Of a stretch of DNA of 64,000 nt, positions 9,405 to 64,000 are shown one piece after another; within the stretch, counting starts at the first letter, position 1, and each line of letters starts with the position of its first letter. Source of the stretch: Ignavibacteriota bacterium (lineage in GTDB: Bacteria > Bacteroidota > Ignavibacteria > UBA10030); assembly GCA_963701295.1 (NCBI GenBank), contig OY969585.1:3392001-3456000 (forward strand), written 5' to 3'. Below the pieces are notes generated by a model. It was not told where the DNA came from and searched no databases. It saw nothing but the letters and a program-made list of their open reading frames with translations. The position numbers and the translations under genes are program-made.

Positions 9405-9788
9405 AAAAAAATCTCCCAGTCACTTTTTAACACATCTAAATAAAATCTACTATATCTACTTTCCAATAGCAAACAAAAAACCTTGACGCACTACATAATG
9501 CCGGAGTAATGGAGACAGCTCATAGTAGCGCCTGCAACTATGAACTTATAACTGATGTATCTTTTAGGAGGGAGGTACTGGTTTTCCCCTCGTTAAAACA
9601 TAGATAGTACACACATGAACAATGAAGTACAATCACGCTTCTTGTATTAACCACGGAAGTCAATATAATCTTAGAGCTGTGAGAAGATATTTATTTTCTC
9701 TCTCCCTCCCGAAGGTTCGCATAGAGAGGCTTATTACAACTAGCTCTGTCCTTCCCGCTTGCACCACTATCCTTCGTAATCAGGGATG

Positions 9789-11423
9789 TTATTCGTTTCC
9801 ATAGCCAATCTGGAATTCATACGACATCGGCTGATTCGTTCCAAAGCTTTCCGTACCGCTTCCTTTGACGAAACTTCCAACTTCCATCGTGATTGTCCCT
9901 TTTACATGCATAGCGATGAGCGATGAAACCAAATTTCCATAAATGGGAACATCTACGCTTGTTGGCGGGCCAGTTTGATATACACAGTACCACGTAAAAT
10001 CTATGGGTGCAAGTTGTGGGTTGAATTCGACATACAGCGATTTTCCGCTCTTTGTAACCGTTCCAGTCGGTGTGAAATCAGGCGCACTAAAACCGATGAC
10101 GGAACAATTATCCTCCTCTGAAGAACAGGAGGCGAAGTGGCTTCCCTCTCCGCTAGTGACAGTCACGTTTTCATCCTTGATTTTGATTTTCAGCGTCATT
10201 GTGACATCGTCATTGAATGTCCATATCTCTTTTACATCGGAGATTTTCACAGTCGCGTAGATATAGGGTATAACAGTATCGACCACGATAGTGGCAGTAG
10301 TGGAATTTTTTGTAGGTTTTAATTGACAGGTTTGCACTTCGGCCTGTATTGTCGATGTGCCTTTGGTGTCCACCGTGTACGTGCCCATTACTACTCCTGC
10401 GGCATCGGTCGGTGCTAAGGGAGGATCTACTTGACCCGGGCCGCTTGCCACGACGAGTTTAACCGATTGTCCGCTGAATGGTGTATTACCGCACGTCACT
10501 TTGACGTCCACACCTGCTGTTTTCCCCTGATCATCCGGAACAAAGAAATGACTCTGTGATACACTAAGGTTCAGATCCGGATCGCATACACTCCAGCATA
10601 CCTTAATTGCAATATATACATGATATCCATCATCAGGAGTTCCTTCGCTGTAATTCTGGTTTTCGGTCATATCACAACTTCCCTGATTTCCGATTCCCTC
10701 CGCATATACATCGTTGTATCCCGGGGAGGAATAAAAGAATTTGAATATGACATCTTGCAATGTAAAGCAGCAATCATTGACCTTTTTTTTCGTCCCGATA
10801 CCTCCAAGACTTTTCACGAAGCCGTACTCCCAATCATTTATTGCAGTTTGAAAACTGAGCCAATTATTGATACCACTGAAACTTTTTTCACCACCGTTGT
10901 ATCCTCCAGGTGTGCCGGATCCGAAGTTAGTGAAATGCGCTACTGAAGCCTGTAAGTGCAGACCGTCTGTAGTAACAATAGCGGGAGTCCTCATCATTTC
11001 CCAAGAGGAGCTGTCAGAATTATAAATATAGAGATTTGCCGTATCTCCAGCCCGGTAGGTAATACCCGACGTTACCGGAAGAACGATAGTGACGGGCTGT
11101 AGAAATGTGGCACCCTTCGGTAGACACTCGATGATATTTCCCACTACAGTGGATTGCAATTCTGAGGGGACCGAATCAGTGCGCAGGGTACGGACGCTGA
11201 TGGTGATACTTGATGAGAGAGCTCCAGCAGGGACATTGATAGAGGCGCCGTAGCTATCTTCCACTTTCCCACCGGATGAACCGATCGTCAGTTGAGAAGA
11301 AGAACCGGTCGGTTTAGTCTGGCTGGATTCGACAGGTCCAGGTTCTTTTTTGCATGTCACTACAAATAACATAACAGAAGAAAAAAGAAGTAAAAGAATT
11401 ATCGGATAATATCGAGTACGCAT
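9789..11423 (-). CDS. Cys-rich putative lipoprotein with ZU5-like and Ig-like (Big_1-like) domains
   Basis: Lipobox-like VVTC; GASINVPAGALSSSITISV..P.GATF.QPVTI..VAHFT ZU5-like pattern; TDAAG Ig motif. Confidence 0.7.
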   Translation of the reverse strand: MRTRYYPIILLLLFSSVMLFVVTCKKEPGPVESSQTKPTGSSSQLTIGSSGGKVEDSYGASINVPAGALSSSITISVRTLRTDSVPSELQSTVVGNIIECLPKGATFLQPVTIVLPVTSGITYRAGDTANLYIYNSDSSSWEMMRTPAIVTTDGLHLQASVAHFTNFGSGTPGGYNGGEKSFSGINNWLSFQTAINDWEYGFVKSLGGIGTKKKVNDCCFTLQDVIFKFFYSSPGYNDVYAEGIGNQGSCDMTENQNYSEGTPDDGYHVYIAIKVCWSVCDPDLNLSVSQSHFFVPDDQGKTAGVDVKVTCGNTPFSGQSVKLVVASGPGQVDPPLAPTDAAGVVMGTYTVDTKGTSTIQAEVQTCQLKPTKNSTTATIVVDTVIPYIYATVKISDVKEIWTFNDDVTMTLKIKIKDENVTVTSGEGSHFASCSSEEDNCSVIGFSAPDFTPTGTVTKSGKSLYVEFNPQLAPIDFTWYCVYQTGPPTSVDVPIYGNLVSSLIAMHVKGTITMEVGSFVKGSGTESFGTNQPMSYEFQIGYGNE

Positions 11424-11471
11424 ATGAATATTACCTCCTATCTATAGTATATAATTCTTCTAATGCTTTTC

Positions 11472-11745
11472 TTAATTTACTTTGTCATTCGACTCCATAT
11501 GATTGTGTTCTGCTTGTATCAGAAAATGCTGTTTTAAATTCTTGAGTGATTTCCATATTTTGTTCCATCGTGGTTTCATGAACAGGGAATCAAGCATAGA
11601 GCCAAAAAGAGGCACCAGCAAATCATATTCAAACGCATTGGTAAACTTCGAGCCGTCATCGAGTGGTTCAAAGATCCACTGCGTGCAATGCAGCATGCCT
11701 TTGGTTGCAACTCCCTTCCAACCGCGGTTCTGTGCAAGAACATGC
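11472..11745 (-). pseudogene. SRPBCC/polyketide cyclase-like gene remnant (probable degraded cassette)
   Basis: WIFEPLDDGSKFTNAFEYDL..LKNLK resembles an SRPBCC C-terminal half; preceded on the minus strand by a GTTAGTT core site near 11751-11757. Confidence 0.45.
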
Positions 11746-12046
11746 GTCTCAACTAACGGACATTGTCAGAACACACTTTTTCTGCTGTACATCATCATTC
11801 AACAGATCATTGTGTGTTCTGAAAAGTTTTAACGGGAATTCGTCGGCGTCGGAGCTGTTTTCTGGATTGTCCATCCGCTCATCAAGAGATAAGCCTGTTA
11901 ATATGGCGGACAAGCCGGCGTTCGTACACAACTGGCGAAAAAGTAAATACTTTCAATTTCAAATGCAAGAGATATTTTTTTTGCAGGCAGAGACTGTGCA
12001 ATAGCCTTTAAATGGAACATTTTATGACCTTTTTCTAAATCCAAAT

Positions 12047-12201
12047 AAAAATTTCAGAAATCGATCTGCCATAAGGGAATAAAAAAAATCCAGAAAAAAT
12101 AATAGCGAAACCACTTTGGCTTTCGGTTTAGATTGATTCCTCTCCTATATCGATGTAGAAGCAACTTGCTGGATCTTCTGTAACGCTTAAAAGCGGGTCC
12201 C
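12047..12201. repeat. Conserved non-coding backbone segment, copy 1 (copy 2 at 54778-54933)
   Basis: Shared blocks agaaatcgat.tgccata, aaccactttg.cttt.ggtttagattgattcct.tcctatatcga.gtagaagc, gcttaaaagcgggtccc. Confidence 0.9.
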
Positions 12202-12282
12202 AGCCGCCATCCGTTAGAACGTATGAATTATTTATTGCGTATTATACCAATTATATGCCATATGTGAACATGGAGGTTTTGT

Positions 12283-12837
12283 ATGAGATACCTTTCCATA
12301 ATGCAACTTTGTCTGACCATGATTGAATTTGGTTGCAAGGAATCGACAACGAGTCCATCACAAGCCGATGAAAACTTGTTGACCAATTCCACCTTCGAGT
12401 TAACCGGATCCCCATCATTGTACAGTTGGGTCGTCTCGGATTCGTCCAATGTCCGTTTCTCTACGGATACACCTTTTGATGGTTCGGGTCGTACGATTGC
12501 CCTTGACGCTCAGTGGTTTGCGCCGTGGCCCAACGGGTCGATTTATCAAATAGTGGTTCAACCTACAGGGACTCATCGTTATCGTCTTTCAATATTTGGC
12601 AAAAGTTCTGGTGTTGCAGGTTTTGTTGAGGTGAATCTTGCCCGTCCATCGAACAATGGTTCAATTCTCCGAATGTCACTCCAGATTTCCGACACTATTT
12701 GGACGTTCTACTCGCTCACCGATACCATTACTATGCATGTAAGTGACAGCCTCTTCATTACTATCAGCGGCGGTGGAACTGAGATTCTTCGGGGAACATC
12801 ATACTTCAACACATGCAAGTTTGAGAAGTTAGAATAG
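12283..12837 (+). CDS. Putative lipoprotein with a carbohydrate-binding-like beta-sandwich
   Basis: FGC lipobox, NLLTNSTFE motif, GGAGG SD; preceded by an attC right-half-like gccgccatccgttagaac. Confidence 0.7.
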   Translation: MRYLSIMQLCLTMIEFGCKESTTSPSQADENLLTNSTFELTGSPSLYSWVVSDSSNVRFSTDTPFDGSGRTIALDAQWFAPWPNGSIYQIVVQPTGTHRYRLSIFGKSSGVAGFVEVNLARPSNNGSILRMSLQISDTIWTFYSLTDTITMHVSDSLFITISGGGTEILRGTSYFNTCKFEKLE

Positions 12838-12997
12838 TGCTCACATTAACACATAACACCGGAAAAGACGCCACTACCTCTGTGATCAAAGTTCATTGTG
12901 CTCGTTAATTAAATATTCTACCGCGTGTGTTCTCCCCCGCCCGTTCTTTTAGACTATAAATGTAATCAAGCTCAATGGGCACCGATGTCTATCAAGC

Positions 12998-13130
12998 TTA
13001 CATATCGGTTTTCCCGTTCCACAACGACGATGTAAGGGCAATTTGTTCGAGCTTGTCCATTGCTCGAACGAGATGAAGTCAGAGAAGCGGCGATGTAGGT
13101 TGCCGTTTTCTTATAATTTGAAATTCAATG
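12998..13130. repeat. Backbone repeat shared with 57291-57378, plus a partial copy of the docking module
   Basis: gacgatgtaag.gcaatttgttcgag.ttgt.cattgctcgaac occurs at both loci. Confidence 0.8.
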
Positions 13131-13279
13131 GATTTTCATATGAGATTTTACAGAAAATTATTTTCTTATGATGGGCTTGATTCCTGAATGCCAATACATT
13201 AAACTTTAGTACATTAAGTCAAGATTTCAAAAAGTTTTCCTGCATACAATTATAACTATCAACAAAGAGGAGTTATAAG

Positions 13280-16156
13280 ATGGATCAGAGAAATATATTT
13301 TGCCATGCCAAGAAACACCAGCTGCTGGTAATGATAGCAGCAGTCATTATATCCTTCCCTATATATAAAAGCAATGCCCAGTTTTATTTGGATACGACGG
13401 CAACCATTGAAGCAAGGGTAGATTCACTGCTCAGCATAATGACGCTCGATGAAAAAATCGGCCAGATGGTCCAACAGGAATTTATTGGACTGGGAAACCT
13501 ATCAGACATACAAACTTACTGCCTCGGATCTGTACTCGCAGGGGCCAATGACTCTACTACTGATCACAGTCCAGAAACGTGGGCGAATTACTGTGATTCA
13601 CTGCAATCGTTTGCCTTAAAAACTCGTCTTGGAATTCCTCTTCTGATTGGCTTGGATGCGATTCATGGAACAGGATCGGTGTACGGTGCGACACTGTTTC
13701 CTCACAATATCGGAATGGGATGTACACGCAATCCTGAACTTCTTACACAGGCGACACAAATCACGGCACAGGAAGTAGCGGCAACCGGATTCAACTGGAC
13801 CTTTAGCCCTATTGTAGCGGTTGCCAGAAATGAGAATTGGGGACGGACATACGAGTCGTATAGCGAAGATCCAAATTTGGTTAAGGAAATGTCAGGAGCA
13901 GCTGTACTTGGATATCAGGGTGATACCTCAGCAAAAAATATAACCATATTGGCATGTGCAAAACACTTCATCGGAGACGGAGGGACGACGGGTGGAATAG
14001 ACGGCGGGAACACTCAGGTTGATGAAGCGACGCTGAGAGCAATCCATTTACCCGGATATCTTGCCGCACTTCAGCAAAAGGTCGGTTCGATCATGGTCTC
14101 TTTTAGTTCCTGGAATAGTGTTCCTTGTGTTGGGGATAAATATTTATTAACAACTCTTCTCAAAGAAGAATTACAATATAAAGGCTTGCTCATCACCGAT
14201 ATGGAAGGCATATTAGGAGCTCCTGGACCAATATATGGTGGAGAACAATTTAGCAATGCAATCAATGCCGGGATCGACATGGCGATGTTGGGTACATATC
14301 CGCCGCAGTTTTATTCCAGGTTTATCGATTCACTCCGAGCGAGTGTTGGACAAGGGAATATATCGTTAGATCGAATCAACGATGCTGTCAGGAGAATTCT
14401 CACACAAAAATTCCGGTTAGGATTGTTCGAGCATCCGTTTGCAAAACGATCTCTCCTCAGCCAGGTTGGTTCGCCGGCACGCCGTCAAGTAGCAAGAACA
14501 TGTGTCCGGCAATCATTGGTTTTGTTGAAAAAGAAAGACGGCATTCTGCCAATTTCAAAAAATATCAAACATATTTACATAACCGGCCGACTTGCAGACA
14601 ATATGGGATATCAATGCGGCGGCTGGACAATCACCTGGCAAGGAGGAAGCGGCCCTACCACCATCGGCACAACAATCATGCAAGCTGTCCAACAAGCTGC
14701 TCCAAGTGCGAGTGTCACCTATTCAGCAGACGGGTCTGGAGCAGATAACGCCGATATCGGTATAGCTGTCATTGGAGACTATCCTTACGCGGAAGGTAAT
14801 GGAATGCTGCCCCTCAACACTTTGGACATTGAGGCTGTTCGAAAATTAAAAAGTTACAATATTCCAGTTATCGTCATCCTCATTTCCGGCCGCCCTCCCA
14901 TTCTCGATCCAATTTTATCGTACAGCGATGCAGTAATAGCGGCATGGTTACCCGGGCCTGAAGGTGAAGGAATTACCGATGTGCTCTTTGGCGATTATCA
15001 GCCGACAGGTATTCTTTCGCGAAGGTGGCCAAAAGATGCTTCGCAATATGTGATGGACGTTGGTGATACGAATTATCATCCTCTCTTCCCGTTTGGATAT
15101 GGTATTACTTCTTTGAATAATTCTCCGGCAGGCTCTCCTCCCGAAGTGTATTCAGCAAGTGTCAGTGCATCCTCAAATTATAAAATGGAGATTTCTTTCA
15201 ATAAGAAAATGGCCGCCCCTTCAATTGCGCCCGGAGGATTTTTGGTATTAGTGAATGGAACAACTCCTATGAATATCACTAACCTGAGCCTGAAGAATAA
15301 TGATTCAACTATAATTCTAGTAACAGTAGATAGCGGTCTTGTCAAAGGAAGTACGTACGCCATTTCTTACTCCCCTGGAAGTATCCATTCTTATGACGGT
15401 GGAACATTAGCTGCCTTTGAGAACGCACAGATATACAACATTTTAAATGAATATTCTTACGTTCATGCTATCCCAAAAAAAATCGAAGCAGAAGAATGTT
15501 TTGCCCATCAAGGTTTAAATATATCGGCGTGTTACGATAATGGGTCAGGGAAATGTCTTGCTAGTATCAATAATGGATCGTGGGCTGACTACTATGTTGA
15601 GGTCTCTCAATCAGGTAAATATATATTGAATTATCGTATATCAAGTCCCGCGGACACCGGACAAATTCAATTAATTACTAACGGTATTGTCATATCTACT
15701 TCTCATGTGCCAATGACCGGATCTTATTCTGTCTGGCAAACCGACTCAACCACGATCGAGCTTTCTGCAGGGTCTCAAATCATAAGAATGTATGCTTCTC
15801 ATGGAGGGTTCTATCTCAATTGGATACAATTCTCTTTGTCGACTACTGGCGTGAAAGAACAGGCTGCCGCTCCGCAAAGTTTTCAATTGTTCCAAAATTA
15901 TCCCAATCCGTTTAATCCCAGCACGACTATCCAATATGCTTTGCCGACTCGAAGCAAAGTAAGGCTTCGGATTTATAACGTACTAGGACAAGTTGTTACT
16001 GATCTCATCAACACAGAACAATCAGAAGGATGGAATCAAGCCGTGTGGAATGCAAATGTCTCTTCGGGATTATATTTCTATCGGATCGAAGCCACATCAC
16101 TGGACAATCCAAGCAAGCGGTTTATCGAAACGAAGAAAATGCTATTACTCAGATAG
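13280..16156 (+). CDS. GH3 beta-glucosidase with SwmB-like, CBM6-like and T9SS C-terminal domains
   Basis: MTLDEKIGQM, DAIHG, ACAKHFIGDG, GLLITD (nucleophile), PLFPFGYG; IEAE..GSWADY CBM6-like; QNYPNPFNP CTD. Confidence 0.93.
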   Translation: MDQRNIFCHAKKHQLLVMIAAVIISFPIYKSNAQFYLDTTATIEARVDSLLSIMTLDEKIGQMVQQEFIGLGNLSDIQTYCLGSVLAGANDSTTDHSPETWANYCDSLQSFALKTRLGIPLLIGLDAIHGTGSVYGATLFPHNIGMGCTRNPELLTQATQITAQEVAATGFNWTFSPIVAVARNENWGRTYESYSEDPNLVKEMSGAAVLGYQGDTSAKNITILACAKHFIGDGGTTGGIDGGNTQVDEATLRAIHLPGYLAALQQKVGSIMVSFSSWNSVPCVGDKYLLTTLLKEELQYKGLLITDMEGILGAPGPIYGGEQFSNAINAGIDMAMLGTYPPQFYSRFIDSLRASVGQGNISLDRINDAVRRILTQKFRLGLFEHPFAKRSLLSQVGSPARRQVARTCVRQSLVLLKKKDGILPISKNIKHIYITGRLADNMGYQCGGWTITWQGGSGPTTIGTTIMQAVQQAAPSASVTYSADGSGADNADIGIAVIGDYPYAEGNGMLPLNTLDIEAVRKLKSYNIPVIVILISGRPPILDPILSYSDAVIAAWLPGPEGEGITDVLFGDYQPTGILSRRWPKDASQYVMDVGDTNYHPLFPFGYGITSLNNSPAGSPPEVYSASVSASSNYKMEISFNKKMAAPSIAPGGFLVLVNGTTPMNITNLSLKNNDSTIILVTVDSGLVKGSTYAISYSPGSIHSYDGGTLAAFENAQIYNILNEYSYVHAIPKKIEAEECFAHQGLNISACYDNGSGKCLASINNGSWADYYVEVSQSGKYILNYRISSPADTGQIQLITNGIVISTSHVPMTGSYSVWQTDSTTIELSAGSQIIRMYASHGGFYLNWIQFSLSTTGVKEQAAAPQSFQLFQNYPNPFNPSTTIQYALPTRSKVRLRIYNVLGQVVTDLINTEQSEGWNQAVWNANVSSGLYFYRIEATSLDNPSKRFIETKKMLLLR

Positions 16157-16183
16157 TATCACATTAAATTATGTGTAGTTTAA

Positions 16184-16280
16184 CAAGCCCCATCATCATC
16201 GGTGGGGCTTTTGTTTCATAGTTCGAACCAGAAGCGGCGATGATTGCCGCTTTTATTTACTGGTTGAGAGGTAGAGTTCT
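16184..16280 (+). repeat. Terminator-hairpin-promoter module, copy with deleted promoter spacer
   Basis: caagcccc..ggggctttt terminator, then tcgaaccagaagcggcgatg..gccgcttttatttac; matches 18632 and 56662. Confidence 0.85.
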
Positions 16281-16340
16281 TGTAGTCAGATCAATAAGTT
16301 ACTCACAATGCATCGGGATGAGTCTATAAACAATATAAAC

Positions 16341-16856
16341 TCACTTCATCAACACCAACTTCTTCAGAAGCGTCTTCTCATTATACTTCAGCCGGGAGAA
16401 GTACGCGCCGCTTGCTAACTGCGAAGCGTCAAATGTTGCCCTCTGGATGTAACCAGCTCTTGCCTCTCCATCAAACACTGTCGCCACCAATTGGCCTAGT
16501 GAGTTGTAGATCGTCAACGACACATGCCCATCTTTCGGCACAGTAAATTCAATCGTTGTCGTCGGATTAAATGGGTTGGGATAATTCTGCGCCAGTGACA
16601 ATACTCTGGGTGCGGTGAGCAAGGTCGTGGTCGTTTCCACGGAAAGCGGTGCTTGGCATTTTGTCCCACTGCCAGACCACGTGCCGTTGATGACTATATT
16701 ATCAGCACATATATCTGCTCCTGCCTGGACTGTTATATCAGTTCCGGCATCAAAAGTCATAGTGCTCTTGCTGATAGGCACTATCTGGCTGTAGACCAAT
16801 GAAGAAGCAAATACTATGGCTAAAGATATAATTGTTGTTTTCATTTTCGTACTCAT
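16341..16856 (-). CDS. Small secreted protein consisting mostly of a T9SS type-A CTD
   Basis: Signal peptide, ~55-aa Cys-pair segment, LAQNYPNPFNPTT..KKLVLMK. Confidence 0.88.
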   Translation of the reverse strand: MSTKMKTTIISLAIVFASSLVYSQIVPISKSTMTFDAGTDITVQAGADICADNIVINGTWSGSGTKCQAPLSVETTTTLLTAPRVLSLAQNYPNPFNPTTTIEFTVPKDGHVSLTIYNSLGQLVATVFDGEARAGYIQRATFDASQLASGAYFSRLKYNEKTLLKKLVLMK

Positions 16857-16910
16857 TATTTGTTATTAAAATATTTTTTTGCTGTCCGCTTAATGCGGGC
16901 ACGTGCATGT

Positions 16911-18245
16911 TCAATTGCCATTCCGAACCTGTTTGAATTCTGCGTCTTTCGATTTCAGTTGTTCAATCTCACTTACTAATACATTTTGCATCCGCTCAAA
17001 CTTATCGAGTTTATCTTTCAGTTCAATATTTTCCGCTTTAAGTTCTTGAATAGCTTTTACCATAACAGGCAGGAGATTGCCCGGTGTTGCTTCAAGTTTC
17101 TCGGGATTATTTTTAAGAACAAGATCAAGCCAGTCGGCATTCTCTTTGGTCTGGACTTCATCAAGCTCTTGTGCAATGAATCCCGCACTCGGCATTTTCT
17201 GCATCTTACTTCCATCTGATTTATTGTCTTTATACCACTCTCTTTTATCCCAGTTAAACAGTCGAGGTCTCAATTTCATTAAGAAATCAATTCCTAAGCT
17301 GAGATCGTGAATATTTTTCTTATCCCGCGCATCCGATAAGGTAGTAATTGTTGTAACTGCACATCGAAGAGAAGTAATATTGCCAGCGCCAAGCGTGATC
17401 TCATTAGATATGGTTGCCACGGACGGTTGAGCTTCGAAACCAATGAAAGTATTATTTGTGCCTGTGGTTATGGTTGCACCTGCATCTTTCCCAACTGCTG
17501 TGTTATAATCGCCAGTAGTGTTGTTTTGTAAAGATTGGAACCCCAGTGCTGTGTTACAATTGCCGATCGTGTTCTTATATAAAGAAGCAATTCCCTCTGC
17601 TGTGTTTTGAATTCCGGTCGTATTGGCATTTAAGGATGCATATCCCACTGCTGTGTTTTCACTGCCGGTCGTGTTGTCATATAAAGAAGAGAACCCTTCA
17701 GCTGTGTTCCAACCGCCGGTCGTGTTGGAACCTAAAGAAAACGTTCCTACTGCTGTGTTATGATAACCGGTCGTGTTGAAACCTAAAGATGACAACCCCA
17801 CTGCTGTGTTATAATAACCGGTCGTGTTGGAATATAAAGAAGACACTCCCACTGCTGTGTTATAATAGCCGGTCGTCAGGCTTTGAAGCGAGCTAAAGCC
17901 AATTCCGGTATTATCGCTTGACTGGCTACCGGTACCTGACATTGTGAAATTTCCTGAATTAATGCCAACAAATGTATTATAACCACTGGTTCCGGAAGGC
18001 GCAAAATCGTGTATGAATCTGTTTCCACCTTTCATAATAACCCCGAGTGATGAGCTGGTTGTATTCAGCAGGGATAGGTTCTTGTTCAAAGATAAAAGCC
18101 CGTTTGTCTGGCTTAATGTCAAGTAACTATTTGATGCATCCTTGATTATAAATATTCCGCCCGTACCAAGTGTATTGGTTATGTTTTGAGAATACGCCGA
18201 CAGGGCGCATACTGTCAAAACCAGGATGAATGTAATTGTTTTCAA
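16911..18245 (-). CDS. Secreted fibre-like repeat protein with C-terminal intramolecular chaperone (peptidase S74) and coiled coil
   Basis: Signal peptide; 14-aa NTTGxxNTAVGxxSL repeats; SDARDKKNI..LRP..GFIAQE..VKAIQEL S74 signature. Confidence 0.88.
   Translation of the reverse strand: MKTITFILVLTVCALSAYSQNITNTLGTGGIFIIKDASNSYLTLSQTNGLLSLNKNLSLLNTTSSSLGVIMKGGNRFIHDFAPSGTSGYNTFVGINSGNFTMSGTGSQSSDNTGIGFSSLQSLTTGYYNTAVGVSSLYSNTTGYYNTAVGLSSLGFNTTGYHNTAVGTFSLGSNTTGGWNTAEGFSSLYDNTTGSENTAVGYASLNANTTGIQNTAEGIASLYKNTIGNCNTALGFQSLQNNTTGDYNTAVGKDAGATITTGTNNTFIGFEAQPSVATISNEITLGAGNITSLRCAVTTITTLSDARDKKNIHDLSLGIDFLMKLRPRLFNWDKREWYKDNKSDGSKMQKMPSAGFIAQELDEVQTKENADWLDLVLKNNPEKLEATPGNLLPVMVKAIQELKAENIELKDKLDKFERMQNVLVSEIEQLKSKDAEFKQVRNGN
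17495..17880 (-). repeat. 42-bp coding tandem repeat (about 9 units)
   Basis: ctgctgtgtt..ccggtcgtgttg recurs every 42 bp; encodes the 14-aa repeat. Confidence 0.9.
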
Positions 18246-18631
18246 TTTTAATTCTCCTTCTGATTAATATGATTTATGTTTTTGTGATATTGCAACGATT
18301 TGATTGAGCGTTTTTATCTTGAACTATGAATATTCTCTCTCTTGTATAACGCTCTTCAGCGATTGGAGACATTTATGCCTGTTTACCTTGTAGTAGAAAT
18401 TATGCGATAAGAAATAATGAGGAGTGAATGAGTAGGTTTACAGATCGGATAGTAGCACCTTAGCAACACACCGACTCATTACTGCCCCATTGAACCTGAA
18501 TGATCGCTGCTTTAATGGAATTCCGTATATAACATACAACACTTCTTATGATGTGTCAATAAAAATATTCCAAAATTCTCGCCCAAATATTCTTACGCAG
18601 TATTAAAAGATTTCTCCATGTTGAAATAGCT

Positions 18632-55150: not shown

Positions 55151-55188
55151 CTAAAGAAAAGCGCAGCACGTCGCGCTCTTCTCTGTCG

Positions 55189-55655
55189 TCATAGATAGAC
55201 GACAGCTTTTTGTTGGAGGGATTGTCGGAGGGATGGAATGTTGCGGGTGTGTCTTGAAATGTCTTTCATCGAATACCCAGCGGTTATGTCATCGAGAAAT
55301 AATCGTTCCTCGGCAGTTAGAGATTCCAGAAAGTTATTTGTGATCGCATAATCTAACGGATTGATCTTGACCGGAAGCTGAAACTCTCCGAGTGTCATTG
55401 GCCTGTCGATGTAAACACGGTCGTGATTCCAAGCATCAAGTTCACTTTTGCCAACTTCTTTTGCGGAAAATGCTGATCTACGATTTAATTCTTTCGAACG
55501 AAAATGCATCATTGACTTCATAAGTCCTAGTGTGCAGCATTTGCCAAGCCTCTCTCCTTCTTTCCAAGCTATAGTAACAAGCTCTGATCTCTGGAATTTG
55601 TCTCGCGTAAACTGTTCGCTATAATGCCACAATCTTCGTATTCTTGTTCGCTCAT
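55189..55655 (-). pseudogene. Sigma-factor-like / HTH protein with 5' frameshift
   Basis: C-terminal FLESLTAEER..GYSMKDISR resembles sigma region 4; SD-backed ATG at 55655 is out of frame with the main ORF. Confidence 0.45.
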
Positions 55656-56016
55656 AGGTATTCTCCTTTCATATATTCTTATTCCATAATAAAAACGGTA
55701 TAAGAGAAAGCGGATCAGCCGCTACCATGTGGCAAAAAGACTGCACGAAAATTTGAAAAAGTATTCCTTTTACTTCCAATTTGTAGTTGATTGAGGACAG
55801 GAGTGTCTTACTTTCTCTACGTAAAGAGGATGCTTCTCGTGAAATTGTCACAAAAGATCTTATCTCAAACCAATAAATACTGGCAAGGAGTTTGTGAATT
55901 CACGACACAGCATCACTATCAAATAACACAATGGGGAAATAAAAAAAGCTTCTAATTTGTAGCTTATGTGCCAGTCATGAACTGGTCATTTCCAAATAAA
56001 TCATAATGGAGGATTT

Positions 56017-56568
56017 ATGAAAGCCATATCTGTTATCGTTATTGTCTTTTTATCATTTATAGAAATTCAAGCTCAAGATCAAATCAAAAAAGGTGTATAT
56101 ACACTTAGTGGAACACTAAGCTACTATTCAACAAGCGTTAAGGACGACGGTTCTGGCTTTGACGAAACGGATGTTATGCTTGCACCAACCGATTCATATT
56201 TTATTATTGACCAGGTCGAATTGTCATTCGGAGTAGAGTATGAAAGATCTATATCAAAAATCAACAATTCTTCACAGGAATGGAAGTACACGCGTCCTGG
56301 GTTAGAATTGGGAGCAAGGTTCTATCTTCCATGCGGAAAGGTAGCTCCTTTTATCGGAGCTGATGGACAAGTAAGTTGGACTTCTTTTAATGGACAATCC
56401 TACTCATCACCATCGACTTCTTATGGTTTTACCGGCGGGTTAGAAGTATTTATTTCCGGAGCTGCGGCAATAGAACCTTCTATGAGTTATAATATTTATC
56501 ATTCTATGGATCAACACTCCGAAAATCAATTTCGTATCGGTATTGGTGTGAAATATTTTATATTATAA
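56017..56568 (+). CDS. Outer-membrane beta-barrel protein
   Basis: Signal peptide, alternating beta strands, terminal FRIGIGVKYF. Confidence 0.85.
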   Translation: MKAISVIVIVFLSFIEIQAQDQIKKGVYTLSGTLSYYSTSVKDDGSGFDETDVMLAPTDSYFIIDQVELSFGVEYERSISKINNSSQEWKYTRPGLELGARFYLPCGKVAPFIGADGQVSWTSFNGQSYSSPSTSYGFTGGLEVFISGAAAIEPSMSYNIYHSMDQHSENQFRIGIGVKYFIL

Positions 56569-56661
56569 TATATCACGATGGTCAGTTAATCAGTGAAGTC
56601 TGTAGTAGAAATAAATTTAAAGAACACGACAAATTAGTTATATCTTTTGCAAAATTGCAAC

Positions 56662-56790
56662 ATCAAGCCCCGTCATCGATGGGGCTTTTTTATTGCTCGA
56701 ACCAGAAGCGGTGATGGTTGCCGCGTTTTTTTATCTTGAAATTCAAACAAATAAAGTGTAGAGTTCCGGTATCCAATATATGAGTTAGCA
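56662..56790 (+). promoter_or_regulatory. Terminator + hairpin + promoter + GTT core site (docking module copy)
   Basis: Terminator identical to 18634; TTGAAA(56736)-17-TAGAGT(56759); GTTAGCA at 56784. Confidence 0.65.
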
Positions 56791-56805
56791 GACGAAAGGA
56801 TATTT

Positions 56806-57237
56806 ATGGACAGAATCATAGTATTTATCTTGACGTGTAGTCTTGGTAGTATAATTGGATTGATATGGTCTGTAAGAAATCTTTGGCTAGGTATACGAAG
56901 TCAGTATTGGGACCGATTTGACTGTGAAATTATTGAGTCTCGATTAAGCCTGTTCCCTTTTAAGTTTTATCCGTTCATTTCCTATCAATACAAAATTGAT
57001 GGTATACCCTGCAAAGGGAAGAGAATAAAATATGGAGGCGTAAGGCAAGGTTATTTCAGAGCAGGTGCTTATTGTGATCAATATATTAAAGGGGAAACAT
57101 ATCAGGTAAGTGTTGACCCAAATAATTTCAAAAGAAGTGTCTTAGAACCCGGTCCTTCTTCGCAAATCTATGGGGCGATTATCCTTTGTATACTTATCGG
57201 ATTAATAGGTTTAAATGGATTATTAACTTACCGATAG
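56806..57237 (+). CDS. DUF3592-like membrane protein (cassette-like)
   Basis: TM..S..W....IIESR..YP.I.YQY..DG..V..DPNN..RSVL..TM. Confidence 0.75.
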   Translation: MDRIIVFILTCSLGSIIGLIWSVRNLWLGIRSQYWDRFDCEIIESRLSLFPFKFYPFISYQYKIDGIPCKGKRIKYGGVRQGYFRAGAYCDQYIKGETYQVSVDPNNFKRSVLEPGPSSQIYGAIILCILIGLIGLNGLLTYR

Positions 57238-57264
57238 ACTAGTTTATCAATTCAATCTGCTGCC

Positions 57265-57378
57265 GCCTAACTACCGCTCAATCGGCAAGATTACACATCG
57301 GATGTGTCGTTCCAGAATGACGATGTAAGAGCAATTTGTTCGAGTTTGTTCATTGCTCGAACCAGAAGTGGTGATAGT
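57265..57378. repeat. Truncated attC left half fused to the backbone repeat shared with 12998-13070
   Basis: gcctaactaccgctcaa followed by cgttcca.aa.gacgatgtaag.gcaatttgttcgag. Confidence 0.7.
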
Positions 57379-57599
57379 TAAATCAAGGGGAAGAGTTCTT
57401 GCTTTTGTGTTGAAGAAGAAACATATTAGCTTTTTAGTTTTCACCCATCGCCAACGGAAACCTTTTTGTGAAACATTCAATTGGTTGAAATGTTTAGACG
57501 GGCGTCTTCATGCACAATGAAGTGTATAGTAAATTATACGAAATAATTACAAATTGTCGACCTTTTATGCCTAATAGTCATGAATTGTCGACTCAGTCG

Positions 57600-57618
57600 A
57601 CCTAATCAGTAGTTAGGC
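57600..57618 (+). other. attI-like site
   Basis: aCCTAATcagtaGTTAGGC; same layout as the 54559 site and as the class 1 attI simple site (ccctaaaacaaagtt). Confidence 0.55.
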
Positions 57619-57650
57619 GGGCAACGAATAACATAACAAGGACAACCTCA

Positions 57651-58235
57651 ATGAAGAATATCGAAACCCTAAAGCAAGCGATAATTCGTTGTTTTACCAT
57701 CTCTGGATTGATAATCGCAATCGCTTTTTTAATTTATCGGGCTGAAGTTTTTACTCCAACAATGTGGCCATTCCAATTTCTTGTTTCAGGCATTACGATA
57801 GGGATAGCATTTACTACATTTCGAGAAAAGAATTATTGAGGAGGTCTTGCATTATTATTACTTTGGTACCTTGTTCTTACCATCCCAACTTCGCAAGGCA
57901 ATTCTTGGATATTCATTCTAGAAGGTGTGTATACAGTCATCATATCTGCAGCAGTCTATTTATACATTCATATTGCTGGGAAATCATTCATAAAAAATGA
58001 AATATCCCGAATTGTCACTTCTACTTTAGTCATCGGGATATTCAACTCTCTGAATATTCTTGTCTTAAGTCTATATACTCTTCAATCGCTATTTAGCCAT
58101 TTTCCAAGCATAGTAGATGCAATGTTTCTGAATTTGAAGATTGGAGCAATGCTCGGTTTGTTTATGGGAGTAGGGATTGAGTTGGCAGATTATCTAATCG
58201 ATGCATTGTACAAGGGCAAGGACGTTGCCAGCTAA
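57651..58235 (+). pseudogene. Multi-TM membrane protein cassette with one in-frame TGA at 57837
   Basis: Frame continues REKNY*GGLALLLLW..EGVYTVIIS into the 57927 ORF; ends in attC. Confidence 0.75.
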
Positions 58236-58416
58236 CCAGCAACTCAAGCTGACAGAATGAGCGCCCGCCCAAAGATAAAGCATGGCGGGTAAATGGGTAC
58301 GTTAAGCATGGCGTGCAAAGGTTTTGTTTAATTTGAAAGTTGGGTATAATGAACTTGTTTCGTTGGGTACATTTTGAAACTTATCAACGCCGCAGCTTAG
58401 TTGCCGTCCGTTAGTT
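58230..58416 (+). repeat. attC site (187 bp), inverted relative to the 47-54 kb array
   Basis: agctaaccagcaactcaagctgac ... cgcagcttagttgccgtccgttagtt; interior matches the 49853 and 50613 sites. Confidence 0.92.
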
Positions 58417-58539
58417 GCAATTGCCCGTTCTCAGGAGGAACAAGTATGACCGTCACGTATCATTGCTTTCGAATTCTCTACTCTATTGGCTGCCATCGTT
58501 GTTCTTTGGAGCAGCGTACCCACCACGCAGACCAAGAAT

Positions 58540-58814
58540 GGAGGGATAAGCCCAAGAAAGTCAAGACAGTATTAACAGTTGTTCTGCTTCTGGTTGTATG
58601 GAATAATCAATCAAACTCCCAAGCTAAGAATTGCTATGTAGATGCCACCGGCGGATCGGATGCAAACAACGGCTTATCACCTTCATCAGCATGGAAGACC
58701 ATTGATAGGGTCAACGCGCCAACGTTTGCACCGGGGGATTCCATTCTGTTTAAAAGAGGAGAAACATTCAAAGGTGACGGCGTTTCGGGCCACAGGGGGG
58801 GCAACTACAACTAG
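58540..58814 (+). pseudogene. 5' fragment of a secreted parallel beta-helix protein
   Basis: YVDATGGSDANNGLSPSSAWKTI..PGDSILFKRGETF, then abrupt truncation. Confidence 0.7.
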
Positions 58815-59027
58815 CAAACGGCAACACGACGCTCTAGTGTTTGAAAGGATATTAAAGATATTGCTCGATCCCGCTTAGCTCCACAAAGTACCTCTTTGAT
58901 ATATTTTTTTAAAGGAGGCTTTTTTATAACTTGATATGTTCTTATCAATTCCGAGAACTAATAAAGAGCTTCCATATCGAATAAAATGAACACATCCTCA
59001 CTCGCGAGTGCAGGCTGTACCCGAATG

Positions 59028-60770
59028 TTATTTCATTAAAATTATCTTGCACGATTTTGTTTCGTATGGCGCTGTTAGTCGGCAAATATATATTCCACTC
59101 GAAAGTGCCCGACTGTTTTCATCCCGGCAATTCCATCGCGCGATATGTTCTCCATTTTTTTCGACGTTGTTGATCAATCCGCACACCTTTTGTCCGATTA
59201 CATTATAGATGTCTATCTCAACTTGTTCAGTTACTGGAAGTGTATAACGTATGATTATATCCGAAGTGCTGGCCGGATAGGGATTCGGTCCAGATGATAA
59301 ACTCAGGCGTTGATTGTTTTCATGCGAATTCGACACTGAGACAGCATGTACAAATTCACCATCAATCTGAATCTCCCAGAGAGCATATCCATATGATGTA
59401 CCCCGTCTGTTTCCGTGCCACCGTACATATCGTGCTTCGGTAGGCGGGACAGAAAGAAATTCAGTACCACCGTTGCCGCTTGTTGTCGTATAGATTGTCG
59501 TCCATGTCTGCTTATCGGAAGAAACATCAATGGTATAAGCCAATCCATAGGATGTTCCCCAGAAAAGAGTAATATGTTTGATCCGATAAATTCCCTGTAA
59601 ATCAACCGAAATCCACTGCGGATCGCTAGAGGGGGTTGTCCATCTGGTTGAAAAATCTCCGTCGAAAACATTCGACGCCTTTAGTGAATTGTCGGCGAGT
59701 GCTGAATATTCGCATGGCTTGTTAAGAGCGATATTTGGCAGCAGTACATCGATCTTTTTAAAGTTCGAAGAAATTTCCGTTGTTCCGTCTTCGAAGAATG
59801 CTTTCGCGTGGATGAGATACTCGTTTTGAGTCAGATTGTTCACAGTAATTGTATAAGGAGGTGTAGATGATTCTCCAATTTTTATTGAGTCGGAAAAATA
59901 TTCAATCCTTGTCACGGGAGTATCCGATACGACGCTTGCGTTTAATTGAATAGTTGCAGGAGTTTCGTAAAATAAATTCACTGGCGAAGTTAATAGTACC
60001 TTCTTCTCCCGTTGGGGATGGTTATAGAAAAAATCGACTACGAGATCTGTGCAATTGATCGGATAATTCAACCATGTATGACCGCCGTGAGCATACGTGA
60101 CGAACTCAACATCTGCGCCGGTTTCAACGGCCGGCCATAGTTGAGCGATTGTCCCACCATAGTTGTACACTGTGTCTGGTGTGGCCGAACATTGGTTTTT
60201 TTGCCGCCAGGCAGCCAATCCGGCTTGATCCGGGCTGTAGGGAACAGTGGCATCATCCACGGCATGAATTGCAAGAACTGGTTTTGGTGAAGGAATTGCC
60301 TGACTGGATCCTGTCCAGTATCCCGCTACCGGCGCGATTGCCGCAATTATTTCCGGTAATTGAGCTCCCAGCGTGTAACAAAAAAATGCTCCATCCGAAT
60401 GTCCGGTTACATAGACACGTTTTGAGTCGATATGAAACTTTTTCTGGAGAGTATCCAGGAGAACAGAGACGAAATCAATGTCATTGTCGTGGGAGTTCCA
60501 TCCTCCGCCAACGACAGCACTGGGATAAACAACGAAATAGTTCATAACTTCCGATCGTTCATTGAATCCGCTTTTAAACAATGCGCTGTCCGTGCCGCTC
60601 AATCCGTGAAAAACAAAAATTAATGGATACGATGTAGAACCGTCGTATGACGCGGGCACATGGACGAGATATGCTCTATTGTATCCGTTGTGCATCATGA
60701 ATTGTTCCTGGGCTGCCAGATGGTAGAAGGAGAGACATAAAACCAAACAACTCAAAATTATTTTCATCAC
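59028..60770 (-). CDS. PHB-depolymerase/LpqC-like esterase + Ig + F5/8 type C domain + T9SS CTD
   Basis: PLIFVFHG, VYVTGHSDG, IHAVDD, GGHTW; NIALNKP..FDGD..TRW..WISVDL; SSGIYICRL CTD. Confidence 0.88.
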   Translation of the reverse strand: MMKIILSCLVLCLSFYHLAAQEQFMMHNGYNRAYLVHVPASYDGSTSYPLIFVFHGLSGTDSALFKSGFNERSEVMNYFVVYPSAVVGGGWNSHDNDIDFVSVLLDTLQKKFHIDSKRVYVTGHSDGAFFCYTLGAQLPEIIAAIAPVAGYWTGSSQAIPSPKPVLAIHAVDDATVPYSPDQAGLAAWRQKNQCSATPDTVYNYGGTIAQLWPAVETGADVEFVTYAHGGHTWLNYPINCTDLVVDFFYNHPQREKKVLLTSPVNLFYETPATIQLNASVVSDTPVTRIEYFSDSIKIGESSTPPYTITVNNLTQNEYLIHAKAFFEDGTTEISSNFKKIDVLLPNIALNKPCEYSALADNSLKASNVFDGDFSTRWTTPSSDPQWISVDLQGIYRIKHITLFWGTSYGLAYTIDVSSDKQTWTTIYTTTSGNGGTEFLSVPPTEARYVRWHGNRRGTSYGYALWEIQIDGEFVHAVSVSNSHENNQRLSLSSGPNPYPASTSDIIIRYTLPVTEQVEIDIYNVIGQKVCGLINNVEKNGEHIARWNCRDENSRALSSGIYICRLTAPYETKSCKIILMK

Positions 60771-60890
60771 TTTTCCTTTTGTTCTTCGTATTAACTTTTC
60801 TATAATTTACTATATTTTTTAAATGATTTTTATAGCAGCACTTAATTTTATCCTCACATTTCTAACATTCCAAATCCTCATTAGCTCCAC

Positions 60891-60917
60891 AAAAAAGGCG
60901 CTCAATGAGCGCCTTTT
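60891..60917. terminator. Intrinsic terminator-like hairpin
   Basis: aaaaaaggcgctca-a-tgagcgcctttt. Confidence 0.7.
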
Positions 60918-61103
60918 GCTTTTCGTCCCCAGATACAATCTACTATATTATTGTGACTTCGATACGTCCAAATCTATAAAACGATTTGGACTATTCAGTC
61001 ATCGGCTTTTAGGTAAGATCAGTGAGTAGTGCCTATTTTATCGGCAAATATCGAACCGATAACTTTGCTCTGAATATTCATAATACCAATTCTTCCCAAT
61101 TTT

Positions 61104-61565
61104 TCATTTCATCAAGCACATCTTCATTGCTTGCGAATGATTGCCGGTTTTAATCCTGCAGAGATACATACCGCAGATAAGTCCGGAGCCGTTGAATTCT
61201 TGATTAATAGGTAGAGTTTTAATTTTGCCACCTTCATAAATTCGACTTGGCGGATGCAAGGCATCTAATCGATATACCTTTACAAGAAGTGTTTCATTTG
61301 CCGACCATTTGAATCCTTTCAAATCAACCGTGAGAGTATCTTTGATAGGTTGCTCAATGACCATTCGAGCTTTTTTAGTCTCAATGTCATATATCCATAA
61401 AAGACGATGATTATCTGAGTATAACCATACTGGAATTGCTAAATAGCGACCGTTAGGAGAAAAAAAAAGCATCATAAAGGACTTCTCGAATTCGATCCTT
61501 GCCGTAAATATTAGCATAGAAATCGCACATAAGTTCAGAAACTGGTTCGGCATGTGCACAACCAT
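61104..61565 (-). pseudogene. Degraded chimeric ORF: beta-propeller fragment plus T9SS CTD tail
   Basis: FSPNGRYLA..WIYDIET, and GMYLCRIKTG..KMCLMK. Confidence 0.45.
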
Positions 61566-61669
61566 CGTAACGTGTAATTATTGAATCCTGAGATTTTGCG
61601 CAAGAAAATAAAAAAAGATTATTACAAATAATAATTCATTGTGCATTAATAGATTTCCTTATAAATGCC

Positions 61670-61725
61670 AACTAACGGATGACGGCTAAGCTGCCGCCTT
61701 GATAATTTTCATATTATAAGTTCAT
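61670..61725 (-). repeat. attC right half fused directly to the stop codon of the upstream gene
   Basis: aactaacggatgacggctaagctgccgccttgataattttca..aagttcat. Confidence 0.75.
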
Positions 61726-64000
61726 TTCATCAAAATCAGTTTCTTTGTTTCTGCATAGGAACCAGCTTGCAGTCGATAGAAATATATTCCACTTGCTAAA
61801 TTATTTGTATTCCATTGTTTTGTGTAATTTCCTGCCGACATTTCTTCAGAGACAATGGTTGCCATTTCTCTACCTAACAGATCAAATATTTTCAATGATA
61901 CAAACGATCTCAATGGAAGAGTAAATGAAATAGTTGTGGCTGGATTAATCGGGTTGGGGTAGTTTTGCCCGAGGTTGAATGTTTTCGGTATTATGATTGA
62001 TGCGTTTTCAATTCCGGTGCGTGTGTAATCGGACCCATCATACGGAATCAGATCCGTTACCCCAGTCATATTATTTCTCGGAATGAACTGTAGTTTGTTG
62101 TTCGCCAGGAATTTGACCGTACCAAGATATTTTGGTGTATTATAAACGGAATCTCGTAAAACCGCGGCCCATTGCACCGTTGCCCGCCTGCCATTGCCAT
62201 CGTTGTCGCTCTGATTAATTGCCATACCGAAAATATTATTGACTGAAGGTATTATTGCCTCATTGCCACTATTGATGGCTGACCAGTTGACTGCTAGTTC
62301 TAATGCATATCCTCCAGGAATGATTCTTCGTGCCCACTGCTTCAGTGAATCGGGTACGCTATTCAGATTGTCCGCAGCAACTACTCCTGGCGTAGACATG
62401 CCCAGTGCTGTTAAACGTGTACTCCATATCGAATTTGTCATACTATCTGTCGGCTGTGGATCGATTTTGAGTTCGAGGCAATCATTGAACCATACAGTAG
62501 CGGAATTTCCAGAAAGAATGTTGTCCTTGACCTCTTCGTAGAGATAGAACCATTGGTCGTCCCATGCCGTCCATATCTTTGCCGAAAGATCGGCATCGTT
62601 TACCGGGGCGCCATTGTTGTTGTATGCATAAGAACGGATCTGAAGATAGCCGTCGTTAGGACCGGTTAATGCATTATAGAATGTATCTTTCAATCCATCG
62701 ATCACAATGGGGGCACTGTTCATGCTTTCAAAATTACCATGAACCAGAAACTCCCACAATGAATATTGATATGTTGTCCCCCGTTTAGTTCCGTGCATTC
62801 TCACGTAATGAGCATCAACCGGAGGGAAAGATATATATTCAGTGCCTCCATTTCCCGAAGTAGTGCCGTAAACTGTTGTCCAATTATTATTATCTTCCGA
62901 GACGTCGATGGTATAGGCAAGTGCATACGATGTTTCCCAGAAGAGCGTAACGCCGGTGATTTTATAAATTCCCTGAAGGTCTATGGAAATCCACTGAGGA
63001 TCAGAGCCCTCACTTGACCAACGCGATGTGAAATCACCGTCAAAGGCATATTGTGCAAAAAGGTTAGGAATAATAGAAAAAATGCTGGAACTGTTGGTTG
63101 GTTTATGAAGAGCAACACTCGGCAGAATAACATGGACTTTTTTCAGATTTGATGATACCATGCTCGTTCCATCGGCAAAAGAAGCTTTTGCAAAGAGTAT
63201 GTAATCGTTGGGCTGAACTTTATTCCAGAGAAATGTATAAGGCGCAATAGAGCTTTCGGATAGTTTATCCGCGTTTGCATAAAACTCAACTTTTGTTACT
63301 GCTGTATCCGACTCGATTTCTGCGCTCAATTGGATGTCTGGATTAGCATTATAAAATGTGATTACCGGTGAGGTTAACGTTACTTTCGATTTTTGTTTAG
63401 GGTGTGTCAAGAAAAAATCGACGATAAGATCGGTGCAATGTAGAGGGTAAATAAACCACGCATGCCCCCCGTGACTATAAACGTACAGCACAACATCAGC
63501 GCCAGTTCCCGGGGCCGTCCATTCTCGACCAACAACTCCGTTTGAATTATAAAGTGTATCTGCTTTATTCGAACATTTATTCTCGTTTCTCCAATGAGTC
63601 AGGATTGTATCAACACCCGATGTACCCCCGTACGCAACCATAGGATCATCTATGGCATGAATATGGATGATGGGCATCGGTGAAGAAATACTACTTATCA
63701 GACTGCTTTTTAATAATCCTGCAACGGGAGCTATTGCACAAATTTTTGTCGGCAATTTAACAGCCAGGGTATAGCATAAGAATGCACCCAACGAATGACC
63801 GGTAGCATAAACCCTCGTGGTATCGATATTATAATTCGCTTTTAGGGTATCAATTAATTCGGAAATAAAATTAACGTCCACATTGCCCTCGAGATCCCAT
63901 ACTCCACCGGATCCTCTCGGATAAACTGCAATGTAACCCATGATTTCAGCCCGTTCATTGAATCCATTTTTGTAAAGTGTGCTGTCGTTTCCTCCGCTTC
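61722..64000 (-). CDS. Esterase + Ig + F5/8 C + CBM9-like + T9SS CTD; paralog of 59028-60770, 5' end outside the window
   Basis: GHSLG, IHAIDD, GGHAW; WDDQWFYL..V.D..DCLEL..D CBM9-like; QNYPNPINP; frame open to the window edge. Confidence 0.88.
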   Translation of the reverse strand, partial: SGGNDSTLYKNGFNERAEIMGYIAVYPRGSGGVWDLEGNVDVNFISELIDTLKANYNIDTTRVYATGHSLGAFLCYTLAVKLPTKICAIAPVAGLLKSSLISSISSPMPIIHIHAIDDPMVAYGGTSGVDTILTHWRNENKCSNKADTLYNSNGVVGREWTAPGTGADVVLYVYSHGGHAWFIYPLHCTDLIVDFFLTHPKQKSKVTLTSPVITFYNANPDIQLSAEIESDTAVTKVEFYANADKLSESSIAPYTFLWNKVQPNDYILFAKASFADGTSMVSSNLKKVHVILPSVALHKPTNSSSIFSIIPNLFAQYAFDGDFTSRWSSEGSDPQWISIDLQGIYKITGVTLFWETSYALAYTIDVSEDNNNWTTVYGTTSGNGGTEYISFPPVDAHYVRMHGTKRGTTYQYSLWEFLVHGNFESMNSAPIVIDGLKDTFYNALTGPNDGYLQIRSYAYNNNGAPVNDADLSAKIWTAWDDQWFYLYEEVKDNILSGNSATVWFNDCLELKIDPQPTDSMTNSIWSTRLTALGMSTPGVVAADNLNSVPDSLKQWARRIIPGGYALELAVNWSAINSGNEAIIPSVNNIFGMAINQSDNDGNGRRATVQWAAVLRDSVYNTPKYLGTVKFLANNKLQFIPRNNMTGVTDLIPYDGSDYTRTGIENASIIIPKTFNLGQNYPNPINPATTISFTLPLRSFVSLKIFDLLGREMATIVSEEMSAGNYTKQWNTNNLASGIYFYRLQAGSYAETKKLILMK

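Follow-up and report, generated by a model that had tools for sequence, protein, structure and literature searches.

Integron front ends without integrase genes in a decayed tRNA-associated island of an Ignavibacteriota bacterium

It has been reported that cassettes may lie in attC clusters that have no integron integrase (CALINs), arrays with a minimum of two attC sites with no intI gene nearby, for which exchange with an integron integrase (IntI) encoded elsewhere has been proposed (PMC4889954; Neron et al. 2022, PMC9024848). The present analysis concerns a 64,000-nucleotide (nt) stretch of an Ignavibacteriota chromosome, called the window (GenBank assembly GCA_963701295.1, contig OY969585.1, positions 3,392,001–3,456,000; coordinates are those of the window unless given as genome positions), which holds two islands, A and B. 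The cassette array of island B lies behind an attI site with no adjacent intI, only stubs of it. Both islands are decayed tRNA-targeting integrative elements, and such a family exists; we consider it fairly probable that island B is such an element with two integron front ends, one of which, an attI of the type belonging to the only IntI of the genome (the resident type), is still loaded by that unlinked enzyme. Orphan attI sites are called docks below, and foreign if they belong to another intI lineage.

The arrays of the window are CALINs by definition, with five full attC sites in 47688–54060 and no integron integrase nearby, the attC criterion being judged with our own profile rather than with the covariance model of IntegronFinder. 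They thus share with the published clusters the lack of a nearby intI; CALINs, however, are defined without attI, which those tools do not find outside classes 1–3, and 95% of them had no recognisable intI pseudogene in a search with the C-terminal domain (PMC4889954, PMC9024848), whereas the arrays described here retain attI together with a 5' stub cut back as far as the predicted promoter. Because attI is undetectable outside a few classes, the origin and activity of CALINs have stayed open. Similarly, In104 of Salmonella genomic island 1 has a second functional attI1 behind a truncated intI1, in a groEL-intI1 fusion, but that element has an intact intI1 at a distance of a few kb, and both sites are of one class (PMC3285670); the element described here has no intI, and its genome has 13 orphan sites of three lineages. 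Single cassettes near a resident promoter, as reported for attG sites and single attC sites lacking integron integrases (SALINs; Loot et al., 10.1101/2022.09.11.507474), fit the cassette starts at 18802 and 56784, whereas those at 54565 and 57612 are attI homologues and not attG. In the delta-attI cassettes of classes 1 and 2, pieces of attI are movable by IntI recombination (PMC12901181); there the attI piece replaces attC, whereas in the present case a foreign platform is followed by an attI of the resident type, which heads an array. For Xanthomonas, loss of intI through deletion, the presence of arrays at several conserved loci and mobilisation in trans are stated, but orphan attI copies and carriage by islands do not appear in the portion of text covered (10.1101/2025.06.18.660453). 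A chromosome with a dozen promoter-trimmed attI sites of several lineages and one IntI was not found in the open-access literature, supplements aside. The genus offers together a closed genome, three readable attI types, one integrase, and cognate and foreign docks, and relatives with different resident integrases make the loading in trans and the expression of integrase-less arrays directly testable.

Two integron front ends in island B

The host genome (G000) is a single contig of 3.64 Mb, 99% complete. Core genes occupy 1–9406 and 22713–44566 of the window, and in the relative G009 (92% nucleotide identity in the flanks) both island sites are empty, 9406 being joined to 22708 and 44567 to 70775, which defines island A as 9407–22707 and island B as 44568–70775. 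Island B extends 6.8 kb beyond the window, where it is closed by its own frameshifted integrase and a duplicate of the tRNA-Ser 5' part; its tRNA-Ser site is empty in G002 and G006 as well as in G009. The islands and their cassette-bearing features are as follows.

9407..22707, no strand: island A, inserted at the 3' end of tRNA-Leu(taa)
44568..64000 in the window, on to 70775, no strand: island B
54563..54594, minus strand: resident-type attI, one palindromic repeat and core, crossover G|TT at 54565
54662..54779, plus strand: decayed 5' stub of a foreign-lineage intI (intI nt 132–246), divergent from the attI
54717..54745, minus strand: predicted cassette promoter (Pc) within the intI stub, TTGATT-17-CATATT, a consensus match only
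47200..54562, minus strand: main cassette array, full attC at 47688, 49111, 49851, 50611 and 53901, truncated at 47200
57394..57436, minus strand: second intI stub, 85–88% over 34–39 nt, E 1e-4
57399..57427, plus strand: predicted Pc in the second stub
57567..57614, plus strand: foreign-lineage attI, crossover G|TT at 57612, opposite in direction to the attI at 54563–54594
57615..58418, plus strand: one cassette after the foreign attI, closed by a full attC (58230–58418)
56784..57290, plus strand: single DUF3592 cassette with GTT junction and truncated attC; same insertion in G012
18802..21100, plus strand: decayed cassette run with GTT junction, RDD gene, hydrolase and truncated attC left arms

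The 180 nt from the attI at 54563–54594 to a 155-base-pair (bp) backbone module are a decayed 5' piece of intI in the normal divergent arrangement; this stub is 76% identical at the nucleotide level to the second intI of G010 (G010:C11, E 2e-15) and ends 32 nt past the predicted Pc. The attI sites and the promoter at 54745 had been taken for backbone modules in the initial annotation, and the intI stub shows them to be pieces of integrons. The attI at 57567–57614 is similar to the site linked to intI in G002 and to orphan ones in G003, G013 and L275; its end was not reached by the BLAST census described below, and it was counted by motif and its own stub. Five independent cassette starts had also been proposed. 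Those at 54565 and 57612 are attI; those at 18802 and 56784 are single GTT junctions, 20–65 nt behind a backbone promoter, which fits either insertion at a secondary site near the promoter or a decayed attI; and the one at 11755 is unsupported, as no attI core, intI stub or junction open reading frame was found at its GTT (11757–11755) and no attC after it. No recognisable attI was found in island A. An attC family common to both islands, likewise proposed, holds for the six full sites of island B in the window, and island A has truncated left arms alone (19332, 19572).

The main array encodes glutaredoxin-like, GLUG/type IX secretion system, two unknown, beta-lactamase-fold and GNAT proteins, and two of its cassettes are matched nearly full length by contigs from other samples. 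The serine beta-lactamase-fold cassette (47894–49060) and a metallo-beta-lactamase-fold gene (45851–46510) both score under the NCBIfam resistance-family cut-offs. Among public sequencing runs, none of RNA was listed as containing this genome; three DNA runs contain less than one tenth of the sequence words, and the joints found there come from attC repeats of other organisms. IS110-family elements (L010:14348–15403 and about ten copies, many >99% identical) are located at attC sites in the majority of the genome's arrays, those of the window excepted.

One integrase and thirteen orphan sites

Of 21 integrase matches in the genome, one passes the TIGR02249 cut-off. This sole intI (genome 3,566,721–3,567,662) lies 110 kb to the right of the window, which agrees with the earlier proposal that intI is unlinked; it has an open frame, catalytic columns invariant against seven relatives, and its own array. 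The resident attI consists of two palindromic repeats followed by the core, and its motif recurs at six further genome places, among them 54563–54594 with a single repeat. At least three intI lineages occur in the genus, two of them with 73–85% and 60–62% amino acid identity to the resident, and each has its own attI; intI is present in 12 and the resident-type attI motif in 10 of the 15 same-genus genomes. In the short-intergenic lineage a −35/−10 pair is predicted within intI in all six intact genes; it is intergenic in the other two, where it lies inside none of the intact genes. Pc within intI1 is a parallel for a promoter inside intI (PMC8876359).

A broad attI-core pattern was unspecific genome-wide (20 matches against 10–29 in shuffles), so the orphan census was based on homology, with 16 intI-linked platforms as BLAST queries; G008:C7 (a type-1 pattern match within a gene) and L320 (a core without attI context) were left out before counting. 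BLAST gave 12 orphan attI sites in the genome, and motif plus stub gave a thirteenth; they come from three or more intI lineages and head arrays of their own. In nine of the 13 the upstream homology reaches the predicted −35 and stops 0–38 nt beyond it, and all 21 stub rows end at intI nt 210–257 with unlike flanks; two of these rows probably represent something other than platform stubs, and another is a partial repeat within a complete integron. Two candidate origins of the stubs were rejected: a deleted intI that left its 3' end at the breakpoint common to two docks, for which such a match was not returned, and a single secondary GTT in intI, for which an attC arm stands at the junction in one of the 21 rows and 20 nt away in one. 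Many orphan sites lie outside islands, for instance behind the same housekeeping gene in five species. At one two-gene locus (near L010 12170, compared with L132 and L142) G010 has a complete integron of a foreign lineage, G008 two orphan docks and G000 one of the resident type, which marks a recurrent landing place. GC skew places the origin of G000 near 976 kb and the terminus near 2,712 kb, and 10 of 14 attI point with the leading strand.

Some docks are mosaic. In island B, where a foreign stub is joined to a resident-type attI, the junction coincides with the first repeat's G|TT. G004 and G013 have a foreign attI at whose crossover point an attI of the resident type begins, and in L237 the stub is joined to a third attI type. 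Refitting by IntI is one reading of these sequences that may hold, and short words shared at two of the junctions would also allow microhomology.

A profile scan of the whole genome gave 174 attC sites or arms of one family, 112 of them full (one shuffled genome, used as control, gave 0 matches). The whole-attC minimum-energy fold left the arms unpaired (z −1.0), so arm duplexes were tested instead, and the arms pair better than shuffles in 106 of the 112 sites. By our own box definitions, the R box is separated from the paired L segment by 5 nt on the left in 99 and by 8 nt on the right in 108 of 112 sites. Since the right spacer of the Vibrio cholerae repeat (VCR) is 5 nt (PMC2727003), the attC family of this genome may be unusually asymmetric.

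The cargo of the docks changes exactly at GTT, as had been predicted: the island B dock and the one at genome 1,796,9xx have the same broken stub (94% over 199 nt) and first cassettes that differ from G|TT onwards, and three docks with one common breakpoint lead into three different first cassettes. Two cassettes, one of 499 nt (99.2%) and one of 2044 nt (99.3%), are each present complete in two orphan arrays, with ends within a few nt of G|TT. The number of attC is 21, 9, 28, 10, 30 and 6 behind the six intact resident-type orphan sites and 0, 1, 2, 1, 0 and 1 behind the six foreign ones (p 0.002). Such a contrast would follow from a strict preference of IntI for the cognate attI, which has been reported (PMC2095811). 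G002, where cognate docks head 11 and at least 4 attC (contig end), and G012, where foreign docks head 1, 1 and at least 1, agree with it. Judged from these sequence comparisons, the resident IntI likely still loads cassettes in trans into orphan attI of its own type.

Carriage by the backbone and competing explanations

The docks of several relatives stand at one end of a recurrent element backbone, marked by three features of the window.

55189..55632, minus strand: marker gene of the backbone (weakly sigma-70-like), without its start; an intact relative matches at 65%; no Pfam hit
12043..12202, plus strand: 155-bp backbone end module, copy A, present in 9 of 15 same-genus genomes
54774..54934, plus strand: 155-bp backbone end module, copy B, fused to the intI stub

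In the relatives G002, G003, G013 and G014 the sigma-like gene is followed in turn by repeats, 155-bp module, stub, attI and array. Among 115 sigma-like gene loci, 88 have at least 500 nt downstream; an attI core lies within 2.5 kb downstream on the same strand in 11 of them (nine distinct, as L188 and L231 are one element and L226 is a doubtful core), on the opposite strand in none, and a full intI in 0 of 88. These counts bear out the proposal that one end of the element repeatedly carries attI and promoter-like elements in the absence of intI. At four more loci the attI core is upstream and faces away, like that at 57612. Three attI lineages stand beside the sigma-like gene, so capture happened repeatedly; in G002 this backbone end is followed by a stub 98.4% identical to the intI of that genome. 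Docks are thus carried by the backbone, which is a hot spot for them and not the source of the sites, a link that is real but concerns a minority of loci.

A mechanism can be proposed on this basis. An integron front end would be copied or brought in beside the sigma-like/155-bp end of the element, after which a deletion would take intI and halt at the promoter, presumably because cassette expression is selected. Until its decay, the element integrase would move the dock with its array to other tRNA sites and hosts; the resident IntI would recombine cassettes into orphan attI of its own type, giving long arrays, and foreign attI would mostly stall. Some foreign docks may receive an attI of the resident type, of which island B would be an example. 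More tentatively, and with rather less confidence than in the loading of island B, one may think of a distributed integron, in which one IntI serves promoter-attI docks across the genome, with intI trimmed back to the cassette promoter, docks ferried by tRNA-island backbones and attI refitted to the host's type by IntI. As 104 of the 174 attC of the genome stand behind six resident-type docks, many CALINs would then be live, expressed satellites; orphan docks, and not the intI count, would set the number of expressed first-cassette positions per genome, and the integron would be a genome-wide network rather than a single locus.

Several observations weigh against loading in trans and trimming to the promoter. 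In G009 there is no contrast between foreign docks (0, 5, 8, 2 and 3 attC) and cognate ones (2, 9 and at least 2), and one foreign dock of G006 heads at least six attC. No near-identical copy of any window cassette was found in other arrays of the genome, and the copied cassettes could have entered at attC or via homologous exchange between similar attC arms. The attI at 54563–54594 has lost one of its two repeats; the intI-linked attI of G009 is likewise reduced to one. The stub end points may be biased by loss of BLAST signal, the −10 box is kept only modestly better than the spacer (0.85 against 0.73, with 3 of 21 rows mis-anchored), and the predicted promoters are consensus matches not listed by the promoter scan tool. 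Finally, 77 of the 88 backbone loci have no attI core, and island A is like them.

These points leave room for inert relics, that is, integrons that arrived loaded and lost intI, with disused orphan attI and later sharing of cassettes by attC x attC or homologous recombination. Decay throughout the window, the foreign docks of G009 with 5 and 8 attC and a decayed dock without array at genome 1,210,4xx speak for this, and origin of CALINs by intI loss has been proposed (PMC4889954). We nevertheless hold it unlikely, since docks with one broken stub differ in their first cassette at G|TT, array length follows attI type in G000, G002 and G012, and none of the 21 complete-intI loci has the module, the sigma-like gene or a tRNA in the 2–18 kb of DNA examined around it. 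That the backbone modules themselves, the 155-bp segment and the terminator-promoter, are the capture sites with five entry points is improbable: the GTT junctions behind backbone promoters at 18802 and 56784 and the recurrence of attI beside the 155-bp module are in its favour, but the actual sites share homology with intI-linked attI, an attI core is absent from 20 of the 27 segments next to the module (seven have one), most promoter-module copies lead into a conserved leader without a GTT cassette junction, and 11755 has no cassette.

The arrays might also be fragments of one shattered chromosomal integron, the condition under which the initial annotation would have abandoned its own proposal. 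A single attC family serves the whole genome, the nearest-neighbour attC is in the same array in 17 of 112 cases against 14 expected at random, IS110 copies lie in arrays, four arrays share a tRNA-Met fragment end, and some arrays are headless, without attI (genome 1,156,000; window 61668–64960). A shattered integron, however, should leave one attI, and here 13 orphans of at least three intI lineages (60–62% amino acid identity to the resident) head their own arrays, which refutes fragmentation for the attI-headed arrays, while the headless ones may still have arisen in this way; both islands are, moreover, clean insertions relative to G009. This explanation is very improbable indeed. The reading that we prefer thus remains a decayed tRNA element whose resident-type attI is probably still loaded by the unlinked IntI.

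Further features of the two islands

21590..22582, minus strand: island A tyrosine integrase pseudogene, two in-frame TAG, not IntI
22713..22799, minus strand: tRNA-Leu(taa), target of island A
44483..44566, minus strand: tRNA-Ser(tga), target of island B
44997..45800, minus strand: C-terminal half of an AAA_25 (DnaB-like) helicase gene, residues 237–447 of a 447-residue relative, 49%
11750..12042, minus strand: segment common to one other genome copy, with TTGCAT-17-TACTTT (11968–11940)
21126..21560, no strand: TGGCAA/CTATAG array of island A, behind the integrase, inverted dyads at 21331 and 21448
54960..55190, no strand: TGGCAA/CTATAG array of island B, dyads at 54997 and 55057
16184..16267, plus strand: terminator part of the terminator-promoter module
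18632..18739, plus strand: terminator-promoter module of island A, pointing away from the sigma-like gene in relatives
56662..56766, plus strand: terminator-promoter module of island B
12993..13100, plus strand: 70-bp repeat, copy A, running into the terminator hairpin, part of the terminator-promoter module
57286..57379, plus strand: 70-bp repeat, copy B
16947..18664, minus strand: peptidase-S74 gene block, common to island B beyond the window (85.6%)

A tyrosine integrase adjoins the tRNA in both islands, and both copies are broken; G003 has an intact integrase, 89% identical to that of island A, at the same tRNA. No target duplication was found for island A with tRNA-Leu, tRNA-Cys and tRNA-Gly. 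The description of the islands as sisters holds in part: 2511 of the 13301 nt of island A align to island B, including a 1.78-kb block, but the integrases are 31.6% identical, and the AAA fragment and the sigma-like gene are in island B alone. The common modules were recovered where first described. The ~155-bp segments align at 82.7% over 162 nt (12043–12202 with 54774–54934), with five further copies in the genome, and both leftward hexamer pairs are present (11968–11940, 54745–54717). The ~70-bp repeats (12993–13073, 57286–57366) align at 85% over 81 nt, and the terminator-promoter module stands at 16184–16267, 18632–18739 and 56662–56766 (86%). TGGCAA/CTATAG arrays form only three 300-nt hot spots in 3.64 Mb, at 21100–21600, 54800–55300 and 69300–69800, the last being in island B past the window end. 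The dyad of these arrays was rejected as a conserved backbone origin, as it occurs downstream at 5 of 71 loci and upstream at 3. At 12993–13100, 56662–56766 and 57286–57379 the 70-bp repeat, terminator, promoter and conserved leader resemble one structured regulatory unit, which diverges from the sigma-like gene and has no Rfam match; tRNAs alone reached the Rfam gathering level, and the backbone modules had no match near the cut-off.

The sigma identity of the marker gene is weak but consistent: TIGR02937 gives 20 bits against a cut-off of 42.9 and Foldseek a best E of 0.058, both weak matches, and its Atlas neighbours carry sigma domains at 0.95. It has 380 homologues, with a Pfam domain in none of the 120 listed, and its relatives come from Ignavibacteriota or Bacteroidota. 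The AAA helicase, initially counted among the backbone genes, is a fragment in island B alone, and an AAA fragment occurs in 4 of 40 relatives. Phage satellites of the PICI (phage-inducible chromosomal island) or P4 type combine a primase-helicase replicon with packaging or capsid-hijack genes. The label satellite-like is not borne out here. Island B has half an AAA_25 gene and no packaging gene among the scanned proteins; a Pfam scan of 61 window and 60 relative proteins gave no terminase, capsid or relaxase, nor were packaging or conjugation genes seen in the scanned element proteins.

A fuller backbone in G007 (L153:10460–16705) has integrase, sigma-like, ThiS-like, two unknown, ThiF-like and Gam-like genes, and its ThiS/ThiF/Gam-like set resembles a ubiquitin-system-like block under the PRTRC cut-off. 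Two cargo genes have coding repeats, the peptidase-S74 protein (16911–18245) and the GLUG protein with a secretion tail (50810–53863), with units of 51 nt and 81–87 nt, respectively. In addition, the arrays at G000 1,811,400, 2,419,850, 2,819,460 and 3,133,100 all end in the same terminator and tRNA-Met 3' fragment; one alone adjoins a real tRNA-Met and two begin at tRNA-Arg 5' fragments, which suggests that islands have been shuffled across the chromosome.

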